DNA of 64,000 bases from Escherichia coli (GTDB taxonomy: Bacteria > Pseudomonadota > Gammaproteobacteria > Enterobacterales > Enterobacteriaceae): NCBI RefSeq assembly GCF_022846255.1, contig NZ_AP025682.1; one strand, 5' to 3'. The position numbers and the translations under genes are program-made. Positions 61,430-62,048 of this stretch are shown here, piece after piece. Position 1 is the stretch's first letter; every line of letters begins with the position of its first letter. The notes beneath the pieces were generated by a model that searched no databases, was not told the DNA's origin, and saw only the letters and a program-made list of their open reading frames with translations.

Positions 61430-61714
61430 TTAATGGGAAGCAAGTTCCCGGAAAAAGGCAGGATTTTCTTTAATTGTGGCAAGTACTTTTGCAGCCAATC
61501 CCGTAGGATTTCTTCGCTTCGATTCCCAGCTTTTAATGGTATCCACACTGGTTCCCAGAGCTTTTGCCATCTCACTTTGAGAAACGTTGAGTTGCTCACG
61601 AATAGCTTTAACATCCGCAATTTCGTAGCGGGTCACCCGTGCAGGTTCTTTTAAACCTTGTTTAATCTCGACAGCCTCTTCCAGAGAGGTTTTCAACTCA
61701 TCAAAAAAACTCAT
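61430..61714 (-). CDS. HTH (XRE-like) antitoxin of a type II toxin-antitoxin pair (HigA-like)
   Basis: 94-aa ORF; start 1 nt after the toxin stop; helix-turn-helix-like segment LNVSQSEMAKALGTSVDTIKSWE. Confidence 0.7.
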   Translation of the reverse strand: MSFFDELKTSLEEAVEIKQGLKEPARVTRYEIADVKAIREQLNVSQSEMAKALGTSVDTIKSWESKRRNPTGLAAKVLATIKENPAFFRELASH

Positions 61715-61715
61715 T

Positions 61716-62048
61716 TTATATCTCGCCTTTGAGCAGTTTCGTCAACTTCTTTAGTTGAGCTTTTTCCGTATCTGTCAGACTATCTTTGGCATTTATCGGA
61801 TAGGCCATAATCAAATAAATAATCTCTTCCGTCGCCAGAAAGTAAATTATTCTGACACTGCCACTTTTTCCCTGTGAACCCGCAGCCATTCGGACTTTAC
61901 GCAATCCACCAGTCTGCTGAATGAGATCACCTTTATCGGGAGTTCCGATGAGTTCTTTTTGTAATTCCTTTAATTCATCATCGGTTGCAATCTGCTTGAT
62001 CTGACGCGTAAACATTGGCGTCTCTATAAATATTTTCGCCTTACCCAT
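61716..62048 (-). CDS. RelE/ParE-superfamily toxin (HigB/Gp49-like) of a type II toxin-antitoxin pair
   Basis: 110-aa ORF upstream of and translationally coupled to the HTH antitoxin; GGGAGGGGG SD. Confidence 0.65.
   Translation of the reverse strand: MGKAKIFIETPMFTRQIKQIATDDELKELQKELIGTPDKGDLIQQTGGLRKVRMAAGSQGKSGSVRIIYFLATEEIIYLIMAYPINAKDSLTDTEKAQLKKLTKLLKGEI

Follow-up and report, generated by a model that had tools for sequence, protein, structure and literature searches.

A core region of the Escherichia coli chromosome carries, between ettA and nadR, a pair of small genes resembling a toxin-antitoxin module, and the question arises whether this pair is a recent acquisition with a working addiction or defence function or an old resident on its way out. 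The pair was analysed in the window, i.e., the whole stretch of 64,000 nucleotides of E. coli DNA under study. The reading that is probably correct is that of an ancestral HigB2/HigA2-type operon decaying in E. coli, the toxin of the window being crippled by the substitution K85I. The locus as such is already known: it is annotated by PGAP, has been published as TA30, and its family has been characterised both structurally and biochemically. New here are the K85I and I5K substitutions and a pair of GTGTAC-N3-GTAC boxes upstream of the toxin gene.

The gap between the two core genes spans 765 bp (61375-62139), from the end of the plus-strand ettA at 61374 to the stop codon of the minus-strand nadR, which starts from 62140. 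The open reading frame list and the sequence place two minus-strand ORFs in it, the toxin at 62048..61716 and the antitoxin at 61714..61430. The features of the region are as follows.

62049..62139, minus strand: promoter/operator region, from the nadR stop codon to the toxin ATG, 91 bp
62050..62058, minus strand: Shine-Dalgarno sequence of the toxin gene, GGGAGGGGG, read off the sequence
61716..62048, minus strand: toxin gene, by homology a HigB2-type mRNA interferase of the RelE superfamily; 110 aa, ATG start, TAA stop, WP_137500856.1
61715..61715, minus strand: spacer of 1 nt between the toxin TAA and the antitoxin ATG
61430..61714, minus strand: antitoxin gene nadS; 94 aa, WP_000007436.1
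61382..61419, no strand assigned: REP-type hairpin between the convergent ettA and nadS, from an inverted repeat and its fold

The two-gene, toxin-first cassette with a 1-nt spacer in a gap of about 765 bp, as described in the initial annotation, is thus present, with an upstream region of 91 bp instead of the 90 given there; the minus-strand placement had been left unsaid. Both ORFs are regarded as real genes and not as chance ORFs, because each has highly significant homologues. The layout is that of a reverse-order (HigBA-type) operon, with the toxin first, the antitoxin directly downstream and a shared upstream region. Most of the homologous cassettes show the same order with an adjoining antitoxin, either after a 1-nt spacer, which is the commonest arrangement, or with a 4-nt overlap. 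The 1-nt spacer is consistent with translational coupling of toxin and antitoxin, and a GGCGAG Shine-Dalgarno-like motif lies within the 3' end of the toxin gene, ahead of the antitoxin. The REP-type hairpin (fold of -21.6 kcal/mol, z -3.1) is likely a bidirectional terminator or stabiliser for ettA and nadS. An Rfam scan of the region returned only a chance snoRNA match (E 0.97).

The toxin belongs significantly to Pfam PF06296 (E 1.7e-8). Its nearest characterised relative is HigB2 of Vibrio cholerae (PDB 5ja8/5ja9; E 6e-16 over residues 5-101, 38% identity), and in a Foldseek search of the PDB with the low-confidence toxin model, HigB2 gave the sole matches below 1e-3, the top four being HigB2 chains. 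This AlphaFold model is poor (pLDDT 58) and was left unused for active-site geometry. An earlier assignment to the Gp49-like family (PF05973) does not hold, the match reaching only E 0.058 and 13.9 bits over residues 43-101, and PF06296 is the correct family instead. The motif on which that assignment was founded is present in the protein (G48-L-R-K51-V-R53-MAAGSQ-GKSGS-V-RIIYF). Some homologues carry precomputed PF05973 matches beside PF06296, so the two families are related.

The antitoxin matches the NadS equivalog model of NCBIfam (NF041265) along its entire length, at positions 1-94 of 94, with 182.6 bits against a cutoff of 60, and Pfam HTH_3 with E 6e-10. Residues 35-93 form a C-terminal five-helix XRE HTH domain, which aligns with the HTH domain of V. 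cholerae HigA2 (VcHigA2; E 2e-6, HigA2 residues 42-100). The AlphaFold model superposes on the C-terminal domain of HigA2 (5j9i) with an rmsd of 1.0-1.5 A over 60 residues, HigA2 being the sole Foldseek match below 1e-3. The recognition-helix region (...SWE.KRRNP.GLAAKVL) shows little or no variation among genera. Ahead of this domain, the model contains a helix at residues 3-18 (pLDDT 64-71) and then, at 19-34, a linker modelled with low confidence; together they are presumed to be the toxin-neutralising segment. A phmmer search of residues 1-36 against the PDB gave nothing relevant and no similarity to the disordered region of HigA2, so the mode of neutralisation is only assumed. Neither protein matched a HigB or HigA model of Pfam or NCBIfam. 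The family matches and the gene order support the type II toxin-antitoxin pair proposed at the outset, with a RelE-superfamily toxin placed first and an XRE-type HTH antitoxin; by sequence, it is a chromosomal member of the HigB2/HigA2 family that pairs a PF06296 toxin with an NCBIfam NadS antitoxin. The literature did not reveal where the name NadS comes from, and a search with the RefSeq protein accessions of the pair gave no match. A link to NAD metabolism, suggested by the name and by the neighbouring nadR, was rejected, since homologous cassettes elsewhere never adjoin nadR.

By homology, both genes would be transcribed from a single promoter in the 91-bp region as one bicistronic mRNA. 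Like HigB2 of V. cholerae, the toxin would move into the ribosomal A site to cleave mRNA, and the N-terminal segment of NadS would neutralise it. Repression would fall to the NadS dimer, its C-terminal HTH domain binding two GTGTAC-N3-GTAC(AC) palindromes overlapping the -35 and -10 elements. All of this, toxicity and neutralisation as well as DNA binding and transcription, is deduced here from homology and sequence. The palindromes lie at the following positions.

62085..62099, minus strand: distal operator-like box GTGTAC-TTA-GTACTC; GTAC core begins 49 nt before the ATG; overlaps the candidate -35
62063..62077, minus strand: proximal operator-like box GTGTAC-AAT-GTACCT; core begins 27 nt before the ATG; holds the candidate -10

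The boxes were missed by a repeat search with 6-nt seeds owing to their short arms; they were spotted by eye and then pattern-searched in the window and across the loci. The pattern GTACNNNGTAC occurs twice in the 64-kb window, both times within the 91-bp region. Across genera it stands upstream of 52 of 59 cassettes, and about 59 of the 63 sites found in 338 kb of loci are located in cassette upstream regions. The 91-bp region is also nearly identical in Escherichia fergusonii. The GTGTAC-N3-GTAC palindrome is therefore a likely NadS operator, with strong evidence from phylogenetic footprinting. It cannot be transferred by homology from VcHigA2, because three of the four base-contacting residues of the latter differ in NadS (R68 to D58, E71 to K61, N72 to S62). 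The candidate -10 hexamer TACAAT (62069-62074) falls inside the proximal box, and the candidate -35, TGTACT, matches at 3 of 6 positions. A standard sigma-70 scan of 61350-62200 placed no promoter in the 91-bp region; its output was a weak promoter within the toxin gene and one doubtful terminator, so the promoter proposal is manual and tentative.

The V. cholerae pair (VCA0468/0469; PDB 5ja8, 5jaa, 8a0x) is the closest known system. It is likewise toxin-first, with a RelE-fold toxin of about 110 aa bearing a C-terminal helix, and HigA2, like NadS, joins an N-terminal neutralising segment (in NadS a presumed one) to a C-terminal five-helix XRE HTH domain. Like the boxes of the window, the VcHigA2 operator contains TGTAC and is an inverted repeat spanning the -10 element (PMC11006873); it is, however, a single TGTACGC-N5-GCGTACA, whereas GTGTAC-N3-GTACAC occurs twice here. 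The V. cholerae pair is located in the superintegron and that of the window in the core chromosome. The plasmid-borne HigBA systems of Acinetobacter baumannii (HigBA1Ab/HigBA2Ab, pAB120) share the reverse gene order, a ribonuclease toxin and a self-repressing antitoxin and stabilise their plasmid (PMC5906591); they are active, whereas the chromosomal pair of the window is probably attenuated. The founding HigB/HigA pair of Proteus vulgaris Rts1 is also toxin-first and likewise combines a RelE-superfamily toxin with an HTH antitoxin, but its toxin belongs to another subfamily without the C-terminal helix, and the dimer architecture of its HigA is different (PMC5416850). As described in PMC7232551, the module TA30 ("parE-3/yiaG-2") of AIEC NRG857c and UPEC CFT073 is the same locus, toxin-first and between nadR and ettA, and is absent from a 307-bp region of K-12 and HS. 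NRG857c has the same nadS as the window. In the passages on TA30 in that source, the module is viewed, without experiment, as a pathogen-associated islet "maintained or inserted"; they do not contain the K-12 remnant, the E. fergusonii copy, the HigB2 homology or the K85I allele.

The window toxin departs from its family in the active site. Two codons set this allele apart.

61794..61796, minus strand: codon 85, ATA (Ile), aligned with the catalytic Lys84 of VcHigB2; AAA or AAG (Lys) in relatives
62034..62036, minus strand: codon 5, AAA (Lys), the rare I5K; ATA (Ile) in the other E. coli and the E. fergusonii alleles examined

The alignments match R53, R66 and Y83 to R51, R64 and Y82 of VcHigB2, and position 85 has Ile against Lys84. 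The gene belongs to the family by descent, but this allele keeps only three of the four active-site residues of HigB2-type toxins. In VcHigB2, the substitution K84A lowers activity 3000-fold (PMC5416850), the aligned lysine being the most important residue of that toxin. The lysine is found in every other full-length homologue examined, i.e., in about 54 from other genera, none of which has Ile, in the E. fergusonii allele and in the other E. coli alleles examined. Codon 85 reads ATA in 222 of the 672 E. coli carriers, AAA in 282 and AAG in the remainder sampled, and the exact toxin protein of the window was met on 3 contigs only. The window allele is probably strongly attenuated or non-toxic, and the module is thus most likely a hypomorphic relic whose autorepressing antitoxin is intact, and not an active addiction or defence system. 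The initial annotation, in which this substitution was missed, had named a toxin that is not toxic on expression as grounds for its own refutation, and K85I bears directly on that point.

The strongest alternative, though an unlikely one, is that K85I is tolerated and the pair works as a fully active HigBA2-type addiction or stress module, with growth arrest upon degradation of NadS. The toxin ORF is intact with the three other catalytic residues kept, the antitoxin and both operator-like boxes are perfectly conserved, and the nearly invariant K88, only three residues from position 85, might partly substitute for the lost lysine. An ORF with K85I that is unbroken in 222 genomes would also fit retained function. 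Yet isoleucine is neither an acid/base nor a phosphate binder, the residue lost is the one whose removal costs VcHigB2 most, and a general trend towards toxin loss is seen at this locus in E. coli.

That trend becomes apparent when the junction is compared among genomes. In E. fergusonii ATCC 35469, the cassette occupies the same place in the order radA-nadR-toxin-nadS-ettA-slt, and the 4,990 bp aligned are 96.35% identical. Among 5,426 complete E. coli genomes, 4,962 keep at least the segment made up of the nadS 5' and toxin 3' parts: the cassette is intact at the nadR-ettA junction in 672, and about 4,290 further genomes, K-12 included, have a remnant instead. The whole cassette is lost in the other 464 or so. 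In all toxin-less genomes examined (K-12, O157, AF3, EC6868, s800, S51), one and the same deletion junction was found, GATAACCG abutting TGAYGAAAC. The ettA–nadR gap of K-12, earlier put at about 50 bp, is in fact 307 bp long; left in it are the 3'-terminal ~28 nt of the toxin gene and, from the 5' end of nadS, ~37 of the 94 codons, with a three-REP array in place of the nadS 3' part beyond about codon 37.

The intact state is considered ancestral and the K-12 state derived, because of the E. fergusonii copy, the widespread remnants and the one shared deletion junction. Judged by these comparisons, the pair already occupied the nadR-ettA junction in the common ancestor of E. coli and E. fergusonii and was not inserted in the window strain. 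A single ancient deletion took out promoter and toxin together in the ancestor(s) of some 80% of E. coli genomes; the orphan nadS left behind was then cut short by REP elements, deprived of its start codon or lost entirely. The survey of the junction recommended in the initial annotation revealed intact and partial states; the cassette is not universal, but it is not strain-specific either. A search of genome contigs with the toxin gave 53 loci, none of them from Escherichia, yet E. fergusonii ATCC 35469 carries the cassette; since this copy was missed, the contig search is not to be read as absence from other Escherichia, and E. albertii, E. marmotae and Shigella lay outside the survey.

The decay of nadS also has to be weighed against the idea that the antitoxin has been domesticated, i.e., that NadS is selected as an anti-addiction factor against plasmid HigBA2-like modules, or as a regulator, with the toxin dispensable. 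NadS is identical in all six E. coli loci with an intact cassette that were compared, whereas the toxin has several alleles; about 57 genomes have a full-length nadS without the toxin, and the 55-aa fragment of K-12 keeps the N-terminal segment and is reported to be expressed (PMC12350097). Plasmid toxins are up to 79-81% identical to that of the window, and HigA variants of Acinetobacter cross-neutralise toxins that differ by 42% (PMC5906591). Orphan nadS nevertheless decays freely: its start codon is gone in s800, S51 and EC6868, it is a pseudogene in O157, it has four substitutions in 37 residues in K-12, and some 464 genomes do without any remnant. As to a regulatory role, the only candidate sites in the window are the operators of the pair itself. 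Domestication is therefore improbable. Its narrower form is slightly less probable still, namely that NadS, full-length here and as the expressed 55-aa fragment in K-12, is kept as immunity against the roughly 80%-identical plasmid HigB2-type toxins after its own toxin was crippled or deleted. If this were true, E. coli could shed small mobilisable enterobacterial plasmids without post-segregational killing.

Outside Escherichia, the family rides on small mobilisable plasmids and scattered chromosomal sites. Mob/Rep plasmids of 6.7 kb, a plasmid-like contig from Salmonella and the Kluyvera chromosome all carry cassettes of the same 110-aa toxin and 94-aa antitoxin. Neither ettA nor nadR flanks any of 58 loci from outside Escherichia. 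Homologues were found in 605 plasmid records, 270 of which are Acinetobacter plasmids with ~50-56% identity to the window toxin; we infer that these are HigBAb.

Protection against phage has been reported for some RelE-superfamily toxin-antitoxin pairs, and the module had initially been called phage-defence-type. It would then act by abortive infection, the phage freeing the toxin and the shut-off of translation blocking phage growth. The toxin and the antitoxin match PHROG families 5869 and 2104, both of unknown function, but only 7 weak homologues were present among 50,697 phage records. In PADLOC, the toxin matched only an unrelated CARF model (E 0.003) and the antitoxin only generic HTH models. 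The locus, with radA, nadR, ettA and slt as neighbours, lies outside any defence island, and the catalytic lysine is lost in the window allele. An anti-phage role is very improbable, and the label does not stand.

Least credible of all, and already refuted by the remnants, is the recent, strain-specific insertion of a mobile toxin-antitoxin islet into an empty core intergenic region, as first proposed: the family is mobile elsewhere on small plasmids, the intact pair is missing from 88% of E. coli genomes and the possibility of an inserted islet is also raised in the TA30 passages of PMC7232551, but K-12, O157 and others keep fragments in place with one shared junction, the intact E. fergusonii copy at the same junction has diverged like its flanks, and the ORF list and a repeat search showed no direct repeats, integrase or transposase at the cassette borders.

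The nadR-ettA cassette is thus to be seen as an ancestral operon caught at several stages of decay and not as a pathogen-specific inserted islet, and these stages form a tidy natural series for how chromosomal toxin-antitoxin modules die. The conserved GTGTAC-N3-GTACAC palindrome provides a testable operator for the whole NadS family. One third of the intact carriers, strain 536 included, have a toxin without the key catalytic lysine, which is relevant to anyone who counts or tests toxin-antitoxin systems in B2 E. coli.

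The cassette of toxin gene and nadS is arranged as follows:

62048..61716, minus strand: toxin ORF (110 aa, ATG start, TAA stop)
61715, minus strand: one-base spacer from toxin to antitoxin
61714..61430, minus strand: antitoxin ORF, nadS (94 aa)
61374, plus strand: end of ettA
62140, minus strand: beginning of the nadR stop codon

The convergent ettA and nadR genes are 765 bp apart, as the initial annotation had estimated, and 91 bp separate the toxin ATG from nadR. Both ORFs are genes, because close homologues of each number in the hundreds. The earlier gene calls and the toxin-antitoxin (TA) classification were correct, and the GKSGS ... 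RIIYF motif quoted for the toxin is present as G48-LR-K51-V-R53 ... GKSGS-V-RIIYF. RefSeq annotates the pair as 'type II toxin-antitoxin system RelE/ParE family toxin' and 'nadS'. PMC7232551 describes it as TA30 (parE-3/yiaG-2), located in the nadR-ettA region of AIEC NRG857c and CFT073, and expression of a nadS fragment was reported in K-12 (PMC12350097). Neither the kind of cassette nor its place is therefore new; it is a real, ordinary, earlier-described feature.

In the Pfam search, the toxin matched PF06296 'RelE' (E 1.7e-8) and reached only E 0.058 against PF05973, so the Gp49 family proposed initially was not borne out. Among the solved structures, its only real matches are chains of Vibrio cholerae HigB2 (VcHigB2; E 6e-16, residues 5-101, 38% identity). 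The antitoxin scores 182.6 bits (cutoff 60) against the NCBIfam equivalog NF041265 'NadS family protein', contains an HTH_3 domain and aligns with V. cholerae HigA2 (VcHigA2) over the C-terminal HTH domain of the latter (E 2e-6). At Foldseek E values below 1e-3, the toxin model, which is poor (pLDDT 58), finds HigB2 only; the NadS model is of fair confidence (pLDDT 74) and finds HigA2 only, its HTH domain superposing on 5j9i at 1.0-1.5 A. NadS is predicted to form a helix (residues 3-18), a low-confidence linker (19-34) and then five helices. This predicted layout is that of HigA2, in which a neutralising N-terminal segment precedes the HTH at the C terminus; between the N-terminal segments of the two proteins no sequence similarity is detectable. 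The precise family of the pair is HigBA2, an assignment contributed by the present analysis. A phage-defence role, also suggested earlier, found no backing: PADLOC returned nothing meaningful for the pair, and phage genomes gave only seven homologues, all weak.

VcHigB2 requires Arg51, Arg64, Tyr82 and Lys84 for activity, and K84A is its worst mutant, with a 3000-fold loss (Hadzi et al., PMC5416850). Aligned by phmmer or by MAFFT, the toxin of the window keeps R53, R66 and Y83 but has Ile85 opposite Lys84 (AYPINAK versus IYGKNEM in VcHigB2), so that the catalytic lysine is missing. Lysine stands opposite Ile85 in all other sequences of the toxin alignment A2, at the equivalent position in about 54 full-length homologues of other genera (motif YPK[NS]), and in the E. 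fergusonii copy and the E2348/69, DE17, Eco-15 and 2016C04-116 alleles. K85I is a one-base change, to ATA at 61796..61794 (minus strand) from AAA or AAG. The 672 toxin-bearing complete genomes were searched with 61-nt probes centred on the changed base: ATA matched exactly in 222, including strains 536 and PSUO2, and AAA in 282; the other 168 diverge more from the probes, and those sampled carry AAG. A second change, I5K, is absent from all other alleles examined, and the exact window protein (WP_137500856.1) is on record for three contigs only. Judging from the sequence, we infer that the window toxin would be strongly attenuated or dead. It is unlikely that the K85I toxin retains full function, which could be argued from the nearly invariant K88 close to residue 85 and from an ORF intact apart from the change at 85. 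The K85I allele is an addition to the known locus. Several other E. coli toxin variants in the protein database cluster (P0004, P0005, P0006, P0010, P0097) carry in-frame indels: duplication of GS, loss of KEL, and deletions that remove 6-12 residues from the beta2-beta3 region; the three larger deletions all occur in the I85 background.

The 91-bp upstream region holds the only two GTACNNNGTAC sites of the 64-kb window (expected 0.36), beginning 49 and 27 nt ahead of the toxin ATG; both boxes are identical in E. fergusonii. Of 59 cassettes, 52 have such a site in the 100 nt preceding the toxin gene, and of the 63 sites present in 338 kb of fetched loci, about 59 fall in these toxin-upstream stretches. 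The consensus is a palindrome, GTGTAC-N3-GTACAC, with an inner TACwwT resembling a -10 hexamer. Across genera, the recognition-helix region of NadS (...SWE.KRRNP.GLAAKVL) varies little or not at all, which fits the conserved DNA motif. NadS dimers may bind both candidate boxes and thereby block a putative promoter, TGTACT-N18-TACAAT, which went uncalled in the generic promoter scan. VcHigA2, too, binds an inverted repeat over its -10 element, TGTACGC-N5-GCGTACA (PMC11006873). NadS differs at three of the four residues with which VcHigA2 contacts bases, and the operators are therefore not interchangeable. This candidate family-wide operator motif is likewise new here.

The full cassette was found in 673 of 5,426 complete E. 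coli genomes with a 951-bp probe across the gap, and is therefore not strain-specific as first supposed. The K-12 gap is 307 bp, the figure also given in PMC7232551, and not the 50 bp or so first stated. In alignments, K-12, O157, AF3, EC6868, s800 and S51 keep the final ~28 nt of the toxin gene together with the 1-nt spacer and the nadS 5' end, and these remnants meet the nadR stop region at an identical junction, GATAACCG followed by TGAYGAAAC. This identity indicates a single old deletion, which would have taken the promoter, the operators and about 100 toxin codons. In E. fergusonii ATCC 35469 the gene order is radA-nadR-toxin-nadS-ettA-slt, the toxin has Lys85, and 4,990 bp align with the window at 96.35% identity, the cassette diverging no more than its flanks. 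The cassette is thus older than the E. coli/E. fergusonii split, or at least was swapped with its flanks by homologous recombination. Contrary to the earlier proposal, it is not an insertion, and the window strain has kept it. The species-representative genome scan gave no Escherichia locus despite the intact toxin of E. fergusonii ATCC 35469, in which five of the six peptides used for the search are present; this copy is missed by the collection or by its choice of representatives, and a genome without a hit in the scan cannot be taken to lack the cassette.

The retained segment (toxin 3' end and nadS 5' end) occurs in 4,962 of the 5,426 genomes and the nadS 3' half in 729, which leaves about 57 with a full-length orphan nadS, e.g. 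AF3. The gene is truncated or broken in about 4,230, and about 464 lack any remnant, e.g. M70 (gap 120 bp). The following elements are concerned:

61382-61419, window: single REP hairpin in the ettA-nadS interval (fold -21.6 kcal/mol, z -3.1)
1576-1735, K-12 locus (L002): three-REP array
1682-1849, K-12 locus (L002): nadS fragment, 55 aa

In K-12 and O157, the three-REP array replaces nadS beyond about codon 37. The resulting 55-aa K-12 ORF joins NadS residues 1-~37, carrying E23K, Y30H, A33E and V35A, to a tail of 18 residues encoded by a REP element. The ORF lies 33 bp past the nadR stop codon and its own promoter is gone, so its reported expression would have to stem from nadR read-through. 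Two REPs of the array are all that remains in M70, and the erasure of the antitoxin gene seems to have involved REP/BIME expansion. In s800 and S51 the nadS start codon is lost and the frame shifted; EC6868 has ATG changed to TTG and a 10-bp deletion. On the ettA side of the EC6868 remnant, the sequence (1-260 of locus L072) bears no relation to the usual REP/ettA end and includes a partial hypothetical CDS, which suggests that this junction underwent a further rearrangement or insertion in that strain. That NadS is kept as an anti-addiction factor against plasmid-borne relatives is very improbable, given the free decay of orphan nadS in many lineages. The ancestral status and the decay series are additions of this analysis.

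Relatives pair a 110-aa toxin with a 94-aa antitoxin across a 1-nt spacer or a 4-nt overlap. One and the same toxin protein occurs on small MobC/relaxase/Rep plasmids (ENA metagenome contigs L013 and L014, ~6.7-8.7 kb, one circular) and on the Kluyvera cryocrescens chromosome (P0095), direct evidence of recent exchange between plasmid and chromosome. According to tblastn alignments, not annotations, the codon at the position of toxin residue 1 is GTG in most non-Escherichia toxin genes (L015-L067); those of E. coli and E. fergusonii start with ATG behind a strong Shine-Dalgarno sequence, GGGAGGGGG. Such cassettes are carried by 6.7-kb circular Mob/Rep plasmids, by a plasmid-like contig of Salmonella and, next to metK, by the Kluyvera chromosome; the species genomes that have one number 53 and range from Serratia to Halomonas and Thioalkalivibrio. 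Plasmid records with homologues number 605: about 100 are small mobilisable plasmids of enterobacteria, with 80-90% identity, and 270 come from Acinetobacter. The latter probably belong to the same family as the Acinetobacter plasmid HigBA, which was shown to be a ribonuclease TA system that stabilises plasmids and is autorepressed at its promoter (PMC5906591). Of the 58 non-Escherichia loci, none has ettA or nadR as a neighbour. From this plasmid-borne and scattered occurrence, the family is a mobile addiction module, mostly carried by plasmids.
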